A stretch of 60,843 nucleotides of DNA, counting the filler, from Candidatus Woesearchaeota archaeon CG1_02_57_44 (GTDB taxonomy: Archaea; Nanobdellota; Nanobdellia; Woesearchaeales; CG1-02-57-44): assembly GCA_001871415.1 (NCBI GenBank). It is 6 parts of 6 records of this genome, joined end to end, with 100 filler letters (N's around TTAATTAATTAA, not from the genome) between each part and the next. Parts side by side here need not be neighbours in the genome. Positions count along the whole stretch, not along the records: positions 1 to 30,747 come from MNWW01000075.1; 5 more parts are not named here. One strand, written 5' to 3'. Shown piece by piece: positions 27,301-60,794 of this stretch. The position numbers and the translations under genes were made by a program. The notes under the pieces are model-generated. The model did not search any database, was not told the DNA's origin, and worked only from the letters and a program-made list of their open reading frames with translations. Position 1 is the stretch's first letter. Each line of letters begins with the position of its first letter.

Positions 27301-27639
27301 CTACTCTCGAGCAAGGAGCAGGTGCTTAATCAGCGTGATATCGGTTCTCATGTGGCGCAGCTCTCCGTTGATGCCGCTGATGTCCTGCTCTGTCCTCACC
27401 AGCCGGCGGTTCATGGGATGCAGATAGAAGTGCCACGCCCCGAACAGCACGATGCCCGTGCCGACGGCCCACTCAAACTCCAGAGGCACACCGAACGCGC
27501 TGAACAGCGGGTCCTTGGTGAGCATGCCCACAATCAGGAATGACGACGCGGCCAGGAGCAGAGGCATGGGCTCGCGCTTGAGGAAGTAGAGCAGCCGGGG
27601 GATGGCTATCAATGCCCAGAATATGGTGAGCAAGAGCAT
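27301..27639 (-). CDS. Small membrane protein with C-terminal coiled segment
   Basis: Three hydrophobic segments followed by a heptad-like tail. Confidence 0.6.
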   Translation of the reverse strand: MLLLTIFWALIAIPRLLYFLKREPMPLLLAASSFLIVGMLTKDPLFSAFGVPLEFEWAVGTGIVLFGAWHFYLHPMNRRLVRTEQDISGINGELRHMRTDITLIKHLLLARE

Positions 27640-27823
27640 GGTAGTGATGGATTGATAGTGGTATGTTACTGTTGCGCGAAGGACAGTAGATAGGAAAGTG
27701 CAAAAGTGGGAACTGAACGGAAAATAGCATCATTAGAAGGCTTAAACTCTTCATTTTCAAGATATGGTAGTGCGAGAGTCTTCTGTTTTCTCCTGTAATG
27801 TTGAATCATCCCATAAACTCTCC

Positions 27824-28028
27824 TCATTTTTTGATTATCATCCCTCCACAGTTTCTTTCTTTGCCTTTCTGGTTCTGGATTACTTTATTTTCATAAGAAT
27901 CTTTAATTTCTCTAGTTGAAGCCAATCTTGATTGTTTAATTAACTCATAAGTTTGAGTATTTGTGCTTATACCAATAAGTATTCTTATTACCCTTCTCAT
28001 TTGTTATAAATGTTACATCTTCGCTCAT
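27824..28028 (-). pseudogene. Deleted/frameshifted 5' remnant of a PLD-domain SNF2-type helicase-like gene
   Basis: ATG at 28028 reads MSEDVTFITNEKGN; another frame reads IRILIGISTNTQTYELIKQS...STREIKDSY; both resemble separated N-terminal segments of that family (recognition from memory). Confidence 0.5.
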
Positions 28029-28030
28029 TT

Positions 28031-29482
28031 TCACACCACCAGTAAAAATACCCATAAAGGTATCTTTACAATATTATCTTCTAAATCAAACTCGTCTTTA
28101 GTAATTATAATCCCAAAAGGAGAATCTTTTTCTTTAATAAATCCATTAATGGCCTCAATACTTTCCCTCGGGACTTTACTCCTATATTTTGATTCAATAG
28201 GGATAAGCTTTCTTTTAATTGGAAGAACAAAATCAATTTCCTTGCTATTTTTCCAATAAAATATTTCTGGCTCAGGTCCAGGTTCTATATTAAATTTTAA
28301 TCTTATTAAATGATCAAAAATAATGCTTTCAGCAACAATCCCCAATTCAGTAAAATCTTTTGATAAAGTATCATCTAAATAATCAACAACAGCATTTCTT
28401 ATGCCTGCATCAAGAACATAAATCTTATCCTGTTTCCTTATTCTTGCTTTTCTGCTTTGGGAATAAAATTCAGAGCTTTTAATTAAATAGGCCTTGGTCA
28501 AATATTTAAGATAATCTTTTAGGGTCGGTCTTTGTATATCAAGCACTTTTGCAGTTTTATTAATGTTAAAGTTAGTTCCTGAACTCTTAGCCAGTAATTT
28601 AAATAAATCTTCCAGAACCTTAGGATTTCTGATTTTAAAATATCTTACTATATCTTTAAAGAAAATTAATTTAATTTTATCTCTGATACTTTCACTTATT
28701 CTATTATAGTCATTAATATCTAAAAATTCGGGGTAACCTCCCATTATCAAATATCTGTTTAATTCTATTTCTATTTTATTTCTGTTAGGAGTCATAGATC
28801 CAATTAGCTCTTTTAAGGTCTGATGAAATATTTTAACATCTTTCTCTTGAACAGCCTTAACCAAAGACTCTTTTAGGTTCGTTTTAATTCCAGTATAATC
28901 ATCACTTACTATAGCTCTATATCTCAAAACTTCTGAAAACTTCAAAGGCATCATAACAGAAGTTTTTATTCTACCAAGTAAAGATTCTTCTGTTCCTTTA
29001 TTAATCCATATTGAAGAAGAACCAGATATAATAAACTTTAAATTATACCCTAGATCATACCAGTTCTTGAGTATTTTCTCCCAATGGGGCAATTCTTGTA
29101 TTTCATCTAAGAATAAATAACAAGACTCTTTTAAACTGTCTAAAGGGCTTTTAAGTATATATGTAGAATAAACTTCTAAAACATCTTTTAACTCAGCCCC
29201 TCCAGTATTGAGCTCAACTTCATCAGTAGAGAGATATAATATTCTTTTAGGGGCTATTTTGGAGTCTAGTAGCTCCTGAATTAGTTGGTGTATAAGTATA
29301 GTCTTCCCAACTCTTCTAGGACCTATAATAGAAACTATCTCTCTCCTTTCTAATTCTCGTTTAATTATATAATAGTCTCCCCTCTTAAAAGAACTTGTTT
29401 TTGATTGAGGAATTGGTTTGTCTCCCCACCAAGGATTATATTTATTCAAGACCCTTAACACTTCAGTTTCTGGAATTTCCAT
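28031..29482 (-). CDS. AAA+ ATPase (AAA_14 + DUF4143 architecture)
   Basis: NPWW, GPRRVGKT Walker A, FLDEIQ Walker B, ISGSS, GGYPE, KIYVLDAG, FYWK..EIDF..PIESK nuclease-like tail. Confidence 0.9.
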   Translation of the reverse strand: MEIPETEVLRVLNKYNPWWGDKPIPQSKTSSFKRGDYYIIKRELERREIVSIIGPRRVGKTILIHQLIQELLDSKIAPKRILYLSTDEVELNTGGAELKDVLEVYSTYILKSPLDSLKESCYLFLDEIQELPHWEKILKNWYDLGYNLKFIISGSSSIWINKGTEESLLGRIKTSVMMPLKFSEVLRYRAIVSDDYTGIKTNLKESLVKAVQEKDVKIFHQTLKELIGSMTPNRNKIEIELNRYLIMGGYPEFLDINDYNRISESIRDKIKLIFFKDIVRYFKIRNPKVLEDLFKLLAKSSGTNFNINKTAKVLDIQRPTLKDYLKYLTKAYLIKSSEFYSQSRKARIRKQDKIYVLDAGIRNAVVDYLDDTLSKDFTELGIVAESIIFDHLIRLKFNIEPGPEPEIFYWKNSKEIDFVLPIKRKLIPIESKYRSKVPRESIEAINGFIKEKDSPFGIIITKDEFDLEDNIVKIPLWVFLLVV

Positions 29483-30242
29483 GATGTATATTGTACTATT
29501 CAACGTTTTATAAACTTTTGTATTATATGTTATACAGGTTAAATGTATTTTATACTATACAAAGATTTATATATAAGTGTATATTATATTATACATAAAT
29601 AGACAGAGTATCAAAAACGATTCTCCGCAAAGATCCTCTCTCCTGATAATAGAGTCCGTTATGAACCCTACAATAGAAGAAATAAGAAGAGAACTTAATA
29701 AGACTTTTGAGTCTGTAGTGAGAAATGGGTTAAAACATCTTCTATACTTAAGAAATTAAACTTAGGCTTAGTAGAACAAATACCCTATTTTCAGTATGTT
29801 TATACAATCTTTGGGTTTTAGTTAATATTTGTGTGTCTCTTACTTTGTATGGCAGATTGTCAGAAAAGCCAATTATTACTTCTAAACTGTTTGCAGTTGT
29901 TCTTTACAAAGTCGCTTTTGAAGATCCTCCAACGTGATGGTTAATTCTATTAGTTATAGAATTGTTCTAGTTGGAACTCTCTCGTTTTCTAGTTATTTCT
30001 CTTACATTGTAACTTAAGTTTTGAACTTCTCTAAAATTCTCTTGAAACCCAGTGAGAACTAAGGATAAAATATTATAAATAGAGCTGTCCTACCTACTAA
30101 ATTAGTTTACTTTCCTATCTACTGAAGGATTCCGGAAGATCTGCGGGTATGTTGAGGGTATCAGGAGTAACTCTTGCGGTGGTGAAGGGTTCTGGCGTCT
30201 GTTGCCACCCGTGGTGGTATGTTTATGCTGGTTGACTCCTAT

Positions 30243-30405
30243 GGCTCTGTCCTGAATCTCATTTGACTATGCCAGCAGCGGGCTTCGGCGGCGTTTTCAC
30301 CAGTGACGGATTGACATCCCCGAAGGGGGCATCCCCCTGTCAATGCGCAACATGCAACACATCAGCCTTTGCAATTGCTGCTGGCTGGACTCTTAGGACA
30401 GAGCC
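30243..30405. mobile_element. 163-bp MITE of an IS5-family element
   Basis: TIRs GGCTCTGTCCT / AGGACAGAGCC; inner IR GCCAGCAGC/GCTGCTGGC; last 18 bp identical to the IS end at 44945-44962; flanks GACTCCTAT/GTCTTCTAT match at 7 of 9. Confidence 0.75.
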
Positions 30406-30420
30406 GTCTTCTATATTTGC

Positions 30421-30663
30421 TCACTGCTCATCCTTATGATACAGCATTAGGAACGTGATGATGTCTTTTTCATAGTGATACGCGAGACGATATGGTCCTA
30501 TCTTGAGTTCCCTTGTGTCTTTGCGGCCATAACGCATGGGCTTTCCCGACAATGGATCACTGATGGCTTTTTCCACCTGCTGCTTTACTTGTTGCTTCAG
30601 ACGCTTATCGCGTATCTTCCTGACGGCCTTCAGGAACCCAGGATGGTGCTCTATGCTCAACAT
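30421..30663 (-). CDS. RelE/ParE-family toxin
   Basis: 80 aa, basic; F.K..RK, DP.SGKPMRY..KDTRELKIGPYRLAY, LYHKDEQ. Confidence 0.85.
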   Translation of the reverse strand: MLSIEHHPGFLKAVRKIRDKRLKQQVKQQVEKAISDPLSGKPMRYGRKDTRELKIGPYRLAYHYEKDIITFLMLYHKDEQ

Positions 30664-30747: not shown

Positions 30748-30847
30748 NNNNNNNNNNNNNNNNNNNNNNNNNNNNNNNNNNNNNNNNNNNNTTAATTAAT
30801 TAANNNNNNNNNNNNNNNNNNNNNNNNNNNNNNNNNNNNNNNNNNNN
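30748..30847. other. Assembly spacer (N-run with TTAATTAATTAA); same at 38981-39080, 44445-44544, 50023-50122, 55434-55533
   Basis: Identical 100-nt construct five times; linker has stops in all six frames. Confidence 0.98.
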
Positions 30848-30848
30848 A

Positions 30849-32240
30849 ATGCCTGACATAGACTTTGGTGATGCGAAAAGCACGGTCGCGGTGGTCACCT
30901 TATGGTCTGATAGGACCAAGCTCATGCCAAAGCTGCAGGGCAAGTACCATATCATCGGCAATCTCTACAGCAGCAATGGCATCAACTACATGCTGCAGAC
31001 CCTGCTTGCGTTCCCAAGCATCCGATACCTGATTGTCTGGGGCTTCTCCCTCACCAAGTCCGATGCTGACCTGGTCACGCTTTGGACTGAGGGTGTGGAG
31101 AAGGGCAAGATTCCGGGCACGAAGATTAGCATCCTGCTGGACCCTGAGCGCGTCGACCTGGTGCGAAAGAATGTGCGCATCGTGGACCTGCGCGGCAGGC
31201 CATCGACAGAGATAGCCAAGGCAATTGACGCGCTGCCAGCGATGGAGTCATGGGGAGAGCCCCTGCACGTGTCGCTGATGCCAGAATCCGTGGTCGAGAC
31301 CATCCCCAGCCCCTTGTCAGGCCATCACATCTATGAGGAGTCGGTCTTCGGCGCGTGGGTGAAATCGCTCAATTACATCATGAAGTTCGGCAATATGAAA
31401 GAGTCAGAGTATGGCATCCGGCAGAAGGAATACAACAATCTGATGGTCACTATCGGCAAGAACTATGATTTCATCGAGTATGGCTTCAAGGAGCAGTTCA
31501 CTGCCGATGAGCTGCAGGAGTATGCTGATTCCCTGATGTCGGCAGACAAGCAGCCCGGCCTCTCCTATACCTACGGCGAGCGGCTCATGGACTATCGTGG
31601 CAATGATCAGATAGCGTATATCATCAGCAAGCTTGGCGCATCGCCCAACAGTCGAAGGGCAGTCGCAGTGCTCTGGGACCCGCTCATCGATCAGGAGCAG
31701 CCGCACGGTCCGTGCCTGAATTTCATCTCCTTTAACATCCACAACGACGAGCTCTTCGCCTCCATCGTGTTCCGCAGCCATGACCTGTTCAAGGCATGGC
31801 CCAAGAACGTGCTGGGTCTCATGCGATTGCAGCGGCATGTGGTGGACCGCATCAACGAGCGGCATGGTATGCGTCTGAAGCCGGGCAGGTTCACGGTTAT
31901 CAGTATCTCCGCGCACATCTATGAGCAGGACTTCGCGGATGCCAAGGCAGTGGTTGATCAGCATCTCTCCATCATCCAGCGCCTGAATGTGGACCCGAAA
32001 GGATTGTTCGTGGTCGATATAGAGACCGGCACTATCCGTGTCGAGTATCGCAGCAATGCCGGCGAATTATTGCAGGTCTTCGAGGGCAAGAACGGCGAGG
32101 ACCTCTATCAGCAGATAGCCAACAATGACATCTTCTCCTTCTTCGTGCACTCTGCCTACCTTGGCTATCAGATAAGCAAGGCAGAGTCCTGCCTCAATGA
32201 CGGCAGGCCCTACGTGCAGGACGCGGCGCCTGATAGCTGA
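30849..32240 (+). CDS. thyA: Thymidylate synthase (ThyA fold) with MtrA-like N-terminal and DUF4346-like C-terminal domains
   Basis: YTYGERL, DQI, SRRAVAVLWDP, GPCL, FRSHD, WPKN, SAHIYE; N-terminal VVTLW..IGNLYS..GINY...PSIRYL; C-terminal DPKG.F...HSAYLGYQ.SKAE...YVQD; begins at the contig edge so may be 5'-truncated. Confidence 0.8.
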   Translation: MPDIDFGDAKSTVAVVTLWSDRTKLMPKLQGKYHIIGNLYSSNGINYMLQTLLAFPSIRYLIVWGFSLTKSDADLVTLWTEGVEKGKIPGTKISILLDPERVDLVRKNVRIVDLRGRPSTEIAKAIDALPAMESWGEPLHVSLMPESVVETIPSPLSGHHIYEESVFGAWVKSLNYIMKFGNMKESEYGIRQKEYNNLMVTIGKNYDFIEYGFKEQFTADELQEYADSLMSADKQPGLSYTYGERLMDYRGNDQIAYIISKLGASPNSRRAVAVLWDPLIDQEQPHGPCLNFISFNIHNDELFASIVFRSHDLFKAWPKNVLGLMRLQRHVVDRINERHGMRLKPGRFTVISISAHIYEQDFADAKAVVDQHLSIIQRLNVDPKGLFVVDIETGTIRVEYRSNAGELLQVFEGKNGEDLYQQIANNDIFSFFVHSAYLGYQISKAESCLNDGRPYVQDAAPDS

Positions 32241-38980: not shown

Positions 38981-39080
38981 NNNNNNNNNNNNNNNNNNNN
39001 NNNNNNNNNNNNNNNNNNNNNNNNTTAATTAATTAANNNNNNNNNNNNNNNNNNNNNNNNNNNNNNNNNNNNNNNNNNNN

Positions 39081-44228: not shown

Positions 44229-44366
44229 TTATTGCAAAGCACGGGGTTGAATACCCCGTCCTTCAGGACGTGCTTTGCAATTCAAAAATCCGCCTGCAAT
44301 GACGAGGCGCGGTAATACCGCGGCCTTCAGGCCGCGGTTAGCGCCGAGTGGTGGATTTTTGTTATT
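44229..44366 (+). repeat. Dispersed double-palindrome element, copy 1
   Basis: Matches 49779-49916 (reverse) and 60659-60794 with one substitution. Confidence 0.95.
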
Positions 44367-44544
44367 GGGCCCTTTCTTGTCAATCCGTCTTGGCGCGATG
44401 ACTGTCTTGGTTCACTGCGCCACGACAGGGCATGTTCACAAGTGNNNNNNNNNNNNNNNNNNNNNNNNNNNNNNNNNNNNNNNNNNNNTTAATTAATTAA
44501 NNNNNNNNNNNNNNNNNNNNNNNNNNNNNNNNNNNNNNNNNNNN

Positions 44545-49454: not shown

Positions 49455-49783
49455 AGATTACCGAGAGCCTGTTTGAGGATATAGAAAGGACATTCAAGAA
49501 GGGCGCCACTGAAGTCTTTGATCTCATCGGCACGCTCGCAACCAGCCCAAAGAAAGGCAAACTGCTCGGCAGCGTCGGTGGCATTGTCATCAAGGAGCTC
49601 AAATACCGCAGCTATCGATTCTATTTCATCGCTGATGGATACAAGCTCAAGCTCCTTCGCGCAGAAGACCTGACTGAGCTTCTGCTACGATTCGTGCGCA
49701 TGTCTGATAAAAAGCATCAGCAACAGGTCATTGATGAGATAAAAGCAGTGCTGGTCAACATGGGCGCCCAGGGGTTCAAATAA
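49442..49783 (+). CDS. RelE-like toxin
   Basis: L..SPKKGK.LG, IKELKY.SYRFYFI. Confidence 0.65.
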   Translation: MVVIEITESLFEDIERTFKKGATEVFDLIGTLATSPKKGKLLGSVGGIVIKELKYRSYRFYFIADGYKLKLLRAEDLTELLLRFVRMSDKKHQQQVIDEIKAVLVNMGAQGFK

Positions 49784-49916
49784 CAAAAATCCGCCACTCG
49801 GCGCTAACCGCGGCCTGAAGGCCGCGGTATTACCGCGCCTCGTCATTGCAGGCGGATTTTTGAATTGCAAAGCACGTCCTGAAGGACGGGGTATTCAACC
49901 CCGTGCTTTGCAATAA
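49779..49916 (-). repeat. Dispersed double-palindrome element, copy 2 (inverted)
   Basis: Reverse complement of 44229-44366; its end overlaps the toxin TAA stop. Confidence 0.95.
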
Positions 49917-50177
49917 CACTACAGCTTCCCTATCGCCTCAAGCAGACGACGGTGTCCTTCGACAAGGCGCTGAAATTCCGCTTGCGTCTCTGGTGACAGG
50001 ACCATCGCGCCCTTACCTCTCGNNNNNNNNNNNNNNNNNNNNNNNNNNNNNNNNNNNNNNNNNNNNTTAATTAATTAANNNNNNNNNNNNNNNNNNNNNN
50101 NNNNNNNNNNNNNNNNNNNNNNTCCTGCGCCATCCGACCGCAACAAACATATACCAAAACCAAACTTGGCCACGATA

Positions 50178-55433: not shown

Positions 55434-55869
55434 NNNNNNNNNNNNNNNNNNNNNNNNNNNNNNNNNNNNNNNNNNNNTTAATTAATTAANNNNNNNNNNN
55501 NNNNNNNNNNNNNNNNNNNNNNNNNNNNNNNNNATACTGCTGTTGAACCTCTGCCCGGTGAGCTTGAGGCAGCATTGGCCAGCAATGGTGATGGGGGTCC
55601 CTGGCACACACTGGATGTGATAGCGAAGGCAGCACAGACAGTAGTTGGCAAAGAATCGTATGACCTGACTGCCGGGACTGGGCAATATGCCCGGTAAGGG
55701 GTTGCTACTACATCTCCTCTTGCGTTCCTGGTTCTTCTCCTTGTGGACCTCAGTAGTGGTTCTGCTCTACCCGTAGATTAGACTATGGCCTGTCAGGGAC
55801 ACCCTGCACTGGAAATTATCCGGCAGATCAGGCGCAAACCAGATTAATCCTGCATGATTCCTGTCCTTG

Positions 55870-60658: not shown

Positions 60659-60794
60659 ATTGCAAAGCACGGGGTTGAATACCCCGTCCTTCAGGACGTG
60701 CTTTGCAATTCAAAAATCCGCCTGCAATGACGAGGCGCGGTAATACCGCGGCCTTCAGGCCGCGGTTAGCGCCGAGTGGCGGATTTTTGTTATT
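60659..60794 (+). repeat. Dispersed double-palindrome element, copy 3
   Basis: Identical to the copy 2 core; starts 14 bp after the hom stop. Confidence 0.95.

Follow-up and report, generated by a model that had tools for sequence, protein, structure and literature searches.

Among the insertion sequences (ISs) of archaea, the closest described relatives of the element reported here belong to the ISH3 group, which, according to passages of De Palmenaer et al. (2008; PMC2266710), comprises elements of 1,225-1,500 bp that encode only a transposase, have CRGT ends, duplicate 4-5 bp of target and share a Y-(2)-R-(3)-E-(3)-R transposase motif. Passenger genes between IS ends are known from the IS231 subgroup, transporter ISs and mobile insertion cassettes (MICs) (passages of PMC2266710 and PMC3129680), which are IS4-family elements of Bacillus with 10-12-bp duplications. 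For archaea, a 2019 paper stated that cargo-bearing composite transposons had not been detected (passages of PMC6563490), and the aloposons of Heimdallarchaeia were reported thereafter (as cited in passages of PMC11529989); therefore, archaeal cargo transposons are not new in principle. The habit of inserting at a set distance from a promoter is described mainly for eukaryotic retrotransposons, such as Dictyostelium TRE5-A, whose insertions lie some 44-54 bp upstream of tRNA genes, occur at 5S genes as well and are biased in orientation, and whose ORF1 protein interacts with TATA-binding protein (TBP), Brf1 and Bdp1 (passages of PMC5911963). Here we describe a 2,441-bp element (positions 27684-30124) in a 60,843-nucleotide stretch of DNA, filler included, from the Woesearchaeales genome CG1_02_57_44 (GCA_001871415.1), hereafter the window. 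Very probably, the element is a dead copy, shortened by internal deletions, of an ISH3-like DDE transposon that carries cargo and is native to a low-GC DPANN sister order, and the family to which it belongs inserts at a nearly fixed distance upstream of promoters.

The GC content of the element is 0.30, against 0.60 in the remainder of its contig (C29). Its two 16-bp terminal inverted repeats (TIRs) are 100% complementary and are flanked on both sides by AAGGA (Table 1), so that the AT-rich island stands as the original prediction had delimited it. The host genome holds 409 perfect inverted-repeat pairs of at least 13 bp within 10 kb, 14 of which reach 16 bp and two of which have a flanking direct repeat of at least 4 bp; only this element combines 16-bp arms with a flanking repeat. 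The window is composed of six contigs (C29, C31, C32, C34, C38 and C42) separated by N spacers (30748-30847, 38981-39080, 44445-44544, 50023-50122 and 55434-55533), across which neighbourhoods are not real, and this construction, together with the steep step in GC content, would favour an assembly chimera or a mis-binned low-GC fragment. That explanation is extremely improbable, because the whole element lies within C29, the target-site duplication is exact, and C29 has a 165-bp repeat in common with six other contigs of the genome. Moreover, the left joint is bridged by a contig of sequencing run X3 and the right joint by one of run X2, in addition to run X1, which may itself be the source, and a Joint Genome Institute (JGI) locus, L085, is 100% identical to the element over its initial 1,340 bp and has the same host flank. 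The bridging contigs largely refute a chimera, and the joins at the boundaries, named beforehand as the place where the prediction might fail, are not chimeric.

The derivation of the element is apparent from the larger relative L118/L119, which carries the same ATPase and is collinear with positions 28031-29715 of the window at 94.8% identity over 1,685 bp, a block that takes in the ATPase, the putative promoter region and the start of the transposase. The relative then has 1,285 bp, including the DDE core, that are absent from the window copy at 29783/29784 and that constitute the middle of a 520-aa transposase gene. What is left of this gene in the window (29661-29934) is residues 1-27 and 13-40 on the two sides of a 1-bp frameshift, followed by residues 470-520 at 94% identity. 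The collapsed helicase-like remnant that had been noticed beforehand is confirmed: it derives from the 5′ end of a PLD-SNF2 helicase gene, of which two segments survive at 92-94% identity to locus L114, about 122 bp having been lost between them, and the leftmost 183 bp of the element are the 3′ end of a zinc-ribbon open reading frame (ORF), 90% identical to L177. Short shared sequence is present at both joints of the helicase remnant and, overall, at two of the three deletion joints, and the internal deletion joint is bridged by contigs of runs X1, X2 and X3. Three deletions have removed most of the zinc-ribbon ORF, the helicase and the transposase, leaving one ATPase. Since the ATPase, the promoter region and the start of the transposase are collinear with a larger relative, the element is a collapsed transposon; it derives by deletion from an autonomous ISH3-like cargo transposon, and the proposal that IS ends had captured foreign DNA is not supported. 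The companion claim that no transposase ORF lies inside is right in that none is intact, and wrong in that remnants of one are present.

The transposase of the intact relative L118 (520 aa) finds its best NCBIfam match in ISH3 (E 7e-41) and also matches DDE_Tnp_1. Its catalytic triad D268/D346/E444 and the motif Y437-x2-R440-x3-E444-x3-R448 are invariant in 17 of 17 aligned intact relatives and have been deleted from the window copy. The best structural matches of its predicted model (mean pLDDT 72.6) are piggyBac and Tn5, which suggests cut-and-paste chemistry of the Tn5/IS4 type. An exact scan of JGI metagenomes for the TIR listed at least 122 stretches, with full flanks for 80, many of which continue like the left or the right end of the element in different flanks. 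From left to right, the relatives comprise a left TIR, often the zinc-ribbon ORF, variable cargo that mostly points leftward, a divergent 520-aa transposase gene and a right TIR, with 5 bp of target duplicated. Seven relatives have the two ends together with an exact 5-bp duplication: L242 (7,718 bp), L245 (3,969 bp), L247 (7,226 bp), L249 (7,573 bp), L082+L083 (13,140 bp), L140 (1,811 bp) and L097 (370 bp). Only one of the eight exact 5-bp duplications (ATAGT) begins with A and ends with T, a point on which the wording of PMC2266710 can be read in more than one way.

The comparison with ISH3 therefore rests on the archaeal host, the 5-bp duplication, the transposase motif of intact relatives, the best profile match and a TIR that begins with CAGT and so agrees with CRGT (PMC2266710, in part); the ISH3-like character of the ends, already suspected, is thereby upheld. 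In contrast, the window element measures 2,441 bp and its transposase-bearing relatives 3.5-13.1 kb with cargo, the 520-aa transposase has about 180 extra N-terminal residues and falls below the family cut-off, and a fixed position upstream of promoters is unmentioned in the passages of PMC2266710. The element is not filed as a canonical ISH3 member because the tests of size and profile fail. Like the IS231 subgroup, transporter ISs and MICs, these elements carry passengers between IS ends: the window element has intact IS ends, a passenger gene and no functional transposase, as an MIC does, whereas its relatives L242, L245, L247, L249 and L082+L083 enclose a transposase and unrelated passenger genes within one TIR pair, as transporter ISs do. 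They differ from those Bacillus elements in their DPANN hosts, their 5-bp duplications and their defence-rich cargo. Aloposons are likewise archaeal transposons with cargo genes, and they belong to another lineage.

Several points weigh against the derivation and classification given above. The L118 transposase, the single protein tested, scores 140.4 bits against a cut-off of 225 for NF033541. Among relatives with both ends, three (L118/L119, L239 with 4 of 5 positions, and L254) have no exact 5-bp duplication, and L246 has one of 4 bp. The right end of the window element is about 15% different from every fetched relative, so that its direct parent was not found. In addition, a TIR is present at only one (L190) of 12 other loci with ATPases at 62-75% identity (L187-L198; 11 of these when L189 is excluded), and this ATPase clade is thus not always transposon cargo.

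The distribution of the family points to an origin outside the host's order. The left-end pattern was found in 23 of 240 genomes of the low-GC sister order (that of genome G509), but 0 of 400 further genomes from the host's own order contain it; the reversed-pattern control gave 0 in each set. The window copy therefore crossed orders. Matches to the transposase occurred in 26 of 400 genomes sampled class-wide, all listed outside the host's order and reaching 92%, and in 9 of 400 host-order genomes, where they were partial only and did not exceed 76%. The host belongs to the Woesearchaeales, and the labels of the relatives suggest the Pacearchaeales as donor order; the donor was assigned from distribution and GC content only. 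The named relatives of the ATPase are mostly labelled Nanoarchaeota, Woesearchaeota and Pacearchaeota. The exact TIR was searched for among genomes of the host's order, first in 60 and subsequently in 400, with one other match (G009), which lies at the end of an ordinary ORF and was set aside as chance, and a TIR scan of viral contigs gave 44 single matches, none of them similar to the element at E 1e-4. The GC content at third codon positions (GC3) of the ATPase is 0.23, and this value, the distribution and the transposase matches substantiate the low-GC donor lineage that had been predicted. Movement of genes between archaeal lineages, also predicted, holds at the level of the family, and the recency of the event is supported by the GC3 value, the perfect ends and the nearly undecayed remnant.

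How the element reached its present state can be considered in two ways. It may have come from the sister order as a larger element that still had its transposase, inserted itself ahead of a host ORF at a distance of 44 nt and then collapsed in place, a course to which we give a slight preference. The 3′ remnant of the transposase differs from six relatives by 9-17 synonymous and 1-6 non-synonymous changes; this mostly synonymous pattern indicates that the gene was functional until recently, which argues against an element that had already lost its transposase before it moved. On the other hand, no larger form was found at the same site, and collapse in place is not shown. The other course, which we consider rather doubtful, is that the element was already an MIC and was moved in trans by a helper, either in the donor community or transiently in the host. 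It would explain why the TIRs and the duplication are perfect despite three internal deletions, and it has parallels in L140 (1,811 bp, with a different AAA_14 ATPase) and L097 (370 bp), both of which have exact duplications and no transposase match even at E 1; run X2 also holds other copies of the family's left end with other flanks. Against it, the deleted form, L140 and L097 occupy one site each among the loci fetched, and the host genome, which is 82% complete, yielded neither a second copy of the TIR nor an intact transposase, a PF01609 search giving no match. The expectation of a partner or further copies in this genome was thus disappointed. The predicted empty site with a single AAGGA did not appear either: contigs of four runs contain no joint that skips the element, although such contigs drop rare variants and are no proof of fixation.

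The most distinctive property of the family, of which the original prediction made no mention, is its position relative to promoters. A TATA-like motif starts 13-18 nt out from 25 of 31 distinct left ends, with 0-5 in each neighbouring window, compared with a mean of 2.0 and a maximum of 9 in 2,000 shuffles, 3 of 63 other exact 16-mer matches and 5 of 24 right ends. The 31 left ends were picked by their inner sequence, and the 13-18 window was chosen after those ends had been seen; the set excludes the window site, four elements of a distant clade, L094 (whose end type is unclear), the inner ends within tandem insertions and four sites that are duplicates. A fixed rule was then applied to held-out sites. 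Of 29 sister-order loci, 8 were already known and 2 offered too short a flank; among the remaining 19, all new, the rule held at 14, compared with a mean of 1.5 and a maximum of 7 in shuffles. Given the TATA spacing, the left end lies 42-48 nt from the start of a tRNA, 5S, signal recognition particle (SRP) RNA or protein gene. A tRNA predicted by ARAGORN starts 40-50 nt out from 15 of the 31 left ends, the distance to the SRP RNA in L140 is 41 nt, that to 5S rRNA is 42 nt in both L097 and L242, and the targets in L158 and L246 are protein genes; the anchor looks like the core promoter rather than the tRNA. As in TRE5-A, the insertion window is narrow and orientation-biased at the family level; TRE5-A is a eukaryotic non-long-terminal-repeat retroelement of unrelated chemistry, and the likeness is confined to target geometry and implies no homology.

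It could be argued that there is no targeting at all, and that random insertions survive in gene-dense genomes only just upstream of promoters, because only surviving, assembled insertions are visible in sets that consist of contigs from metagenomes and metagenome-assembled genomes. This is very unlikely, since survival should scatter insertions over intergenic positions, whereas they concentrate in a 6-nt peak and each neighbouring window holds 0-5 of about 30, and since survival explains neither the bias toward the left end (25 of 31 against 5 of 24) nor the re-use of identical 5-bp sites. Such re-use is evident from loci at which TIR, 5 bp and TIR stand back to back (L083, L096, L121, L144 and L256). 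In genome G737 (L313) the order is promoter, AAAAC, element B, whereas L082/L083, which has the promoter flank of G737 (78 of 78 nt), has a 13.1-kb element A ahead of B and AAAAC in duplicate. An occupied 5-bp site can therefore be entered again by a later element, so that cargo is stacked behind a single promoter. Observation extends to the anatomy, the derivation by deletion, the distribution, the target geometry and this one case of stacking.

As to mechanism, docking of the transpososome against TBP and transcription factor B (TFB) on the TFB-recognition element (BRE) and TATA box would fix the spacing, and it may be by this route that the distance is kept, a proposal in which our confidence is close to even without reaching it. 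A prediction of the complex of the TFB core, TBP and the transposase (score 0.00, controls not folded) bears on binding neither way. The transposase might instead read the BRE-TATA DNA directly, by sequence or bend and without a tether to a host protein, a possibility that we take seriously while rating it clearly short of even. Within the flank, nt 11-12 and 15-22 of the motif show sharp conservation, in keeping with direct readout, and the motif or spacing persists in L245, whose 383-aa transposase lacks the N-terminal extension, and in L119 and L140, which lack the zinc-ribbon ORF, so that no extra domain is needed. What speaks against direct readout is the identity of the targets. Protein-gene promoters should be much more numerous than stable-RNA promoters, and yet stable-RNA genes, namely the tRNA genes at 15 of the 31 left ends together with those of 5S and SRP RNA, are far over-represented; this excess fits promoter occupancy better than sequence alone.

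The general rule has its exceptions, which tell against promoter targeting. The motif is absent from 6 of the 31 left ends and from 5 of the 19 held-out ends, and the insertion site in the window is itself a poor fit. The host flank in which relatives have the BRE-TATA motif ranks in the top 2.8% of random host positions and scores below 30 of 31 family sites, and no tRNA was found near the site, Rfam reporting two distant tRNAs only in the whole window. The start of a 112-aa host ORF lies 44 nt out from the left TIR, where a tRNA would begin in relatives; no relatives of this ORF were found, so that its status as a gene is unconfirmed, and in the rebuilt pre-insertion site it gains no upstream extension with a start codon. 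The window copy may therefore be a weak on-target or an off-target insertion. Six further loci (L106, L111, L112 and L130; L115 and L160) have the same 16-mer with two other conserved interiors, in six different flanks near contig ends, and have no TATA motif at nt 13-18; they probably represent a multicopy IS with the same TIR and no promoter bias.

Other relatives and TIR-like sequences were observed alongside. In a more distant clade (30-32% identity; L250:18668, L251:1275 and L252:18584), the transposase-side end lies 8 nt past the 3′ end of a tRNA, and related transposases may accordingly use two different tRNA-adjacent rules. Short contigs contain clusters of 8 and 15 TIR-like 16-mers (L074:572-2416 and L136:397-1500). 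Full-length, 500-aa relatives of the transposase with 22-26% identity occur in haloarchaea (plasmids L285 and L286; 223 plasmid records with a match); therefore, the long form of the transposase is not confined to DPANN archaea. No TIR pair of at least 11 bp was found within 600 bp of two of these haloarchaeal relatives. The zinc-ribbon ORF (204 aa; L238:14179-14790, L239:5608-6219, L082:79-690 and L145:4001-4612) contains no stop codon within the element; its reading frame continues across the left TIR into the target, and its last residues are therefore set by the insertion site. An Atlas search with it retrieved one Nanobdellota cluster only. The idea that it mimics TFB and directs insertion was rejected as not needed, because elements without the ORF keep the spacing.

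The cargo of the family is rich in defence functions. From 182 listed ORFs, 66 proteins were chosen and compared with both PADLOC and Pfam, and they matched restriction-modification (RM) systems of types I, II and III, KwaA/KwaB (Kiwa), ABC-3C, SduA (Shedu), HEPN with nucleotidyltransferase (HEPN-MNT), Fic, and the PADLOC defence candidates (PDCs) PDC-S01 and PDC-S37. Many cargo ORFs had no match, and some matched non-defence proteins (glycosyltransferase, MinD-like ATPase and RadC). A 10.5-kb family member (L246:9308-16453) encodes a 2,382-aa protein with an MG2 domain, as well as a MinD/ParA-like ATPase, and cargo is thus not only defence. The intact cargo gene of the window element, correctly recognized from the start as AAA_14-DUF4143 (AAA_14, E 3e-31; DUF4143, E 7e-33), matches PDC-S01 (PDLC04787) over residues 32-481 at E 1.3e-68 and 230 bits, and differs from its L118 counterpart by 56 synonymous and 15 non-synonymous codon changes. 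It resembles PDC-S01 as an ATPase fused to a PD-(D/E)XK-type domain (passages of PMC12988326), an abundant candidate for which those passages contain no validation; the ATPase would be a single-gene antiviral factor.

Table 1. Features of the element and of its host flank, in positions along the window (TSD, target-site duplication).
Feature	Position	Strand	Basis or remark
Host flank where relatives have BRE-TATA	27662..27676	-	Weak match, score -0.1 bits
112-aa host ORF	27301..27639	-	ATG 44 nt outward of left TIR
Left TSD copy, AAGGA	27679..27683		Sequence and genome-wide repeat check
Left TIR, 16 bp	27684..27699	+	Alignment; the same end in relatives usually faces the promoter
Zinc-ribbon accessory ORF (~204 aa), 3′ remnant	27666..27866	-	Runs through the TIR and stops in the flank
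PLD-SNF2 helicase gene, collapsed 5′ end in two pieces	27866..28028	-	Comparison with locus L114
AAA_14-DUF4143 ATPase, 483 aa, sole intact cargo gene	28031..29482	-	Domain profiles
AT-rich divergent intergenic region between cargo and transposase, putative promoter region	29483..29660		Imperfect 53-nt direct repeat inside (29484-29536, 29543-29595)
ISH3-like transposase, 5′ remnant (~residues 1-41), 1-bp frameshift at 29715/29716	29661..29783	+	L118 alignment
Transposase, 3′ remnant (residues ~470-520 and stop)	29784..29937	+	L118 alignment
Right TIR, 16 bp	30109..30124	-	Alignment
Right TSD copy, AAGGA	30125..30129		Sequence

Several features of the window and the host genome stand apart from the element. 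A repeat of 165 bp that resembles a miniature inverted-repeat transposable element, with terminal inverted repeats of 11-12 bp, lies at 30242-30406, 117 bp from the right TIR, and is unrelated to the element; it has nine matches in the genome, seven of them near full length and several with flanking direct repeats of 8-9 bp. It is followed at the contig end by a ParE/RelE-type toxin gene (30421-30663, minus strand; E 7e-9), and a similar 303-bp stretch ends contig C6. On the next contig, a fusion of an MtrA-like domain, a thymidylate synthase domain and DUF4346 is encoded at 30849-32240 (plus strand). A hairpin-rich repeat of about 136 bp (44229-44366, 49779-49916 and 60659-60794) recurs in the genome with about 44 overlapping matches, which often lie at contig ends. 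The host genome (G000) has other stretches of low GC content (0.36-0.39) at C19:19400-21000, C25:3000-4200, C26:8800-9400 and C51:1-800, in which no copy of the TIR was found at up to two mismatches.

Taken alone, the locus belongs to a known kind of object, the decayed derivatives of transposons, and the family matters more. No description of the family or its targeting was found in the literature searched, which left out most subscription papers and ISfinder; passages of PMC13343696 make no mention of it, and the supplements of that paper may list such elements. A tentative overall model, to which we assign somewhat less than even confidence, is that a prokaryotic family of DDE transposases docks on the TBP-TFB pre-initiation complex, so that its elements insert about 10 bp ahead of the TATA boxes of strong promoters and build stacked defence islands behind the tRNA promoters of DPANN archaea, in parallel to TRE5-A; the window would then record an element that crossed into another order, inserted at a weak promoter and was reduced there to a single defence gene. 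DPANN archaea are reported to be poor in RM and CRISPR systems and rich in PDC candidates (passages of PMC12988326). The family provides a concrete vehicle by which compact defence genes can spread between such archaea, and the window copy documents a jump between orders. An insertion site that keeps nucleotide-exact spacing from the archaeal core promoter provides a testable case of target choice through eukaryote-like transcription machinery in a prokaryote, and repeated insertion into the same 5 bp is one way in which defence islands grow beside tRNA genes without an integrase.

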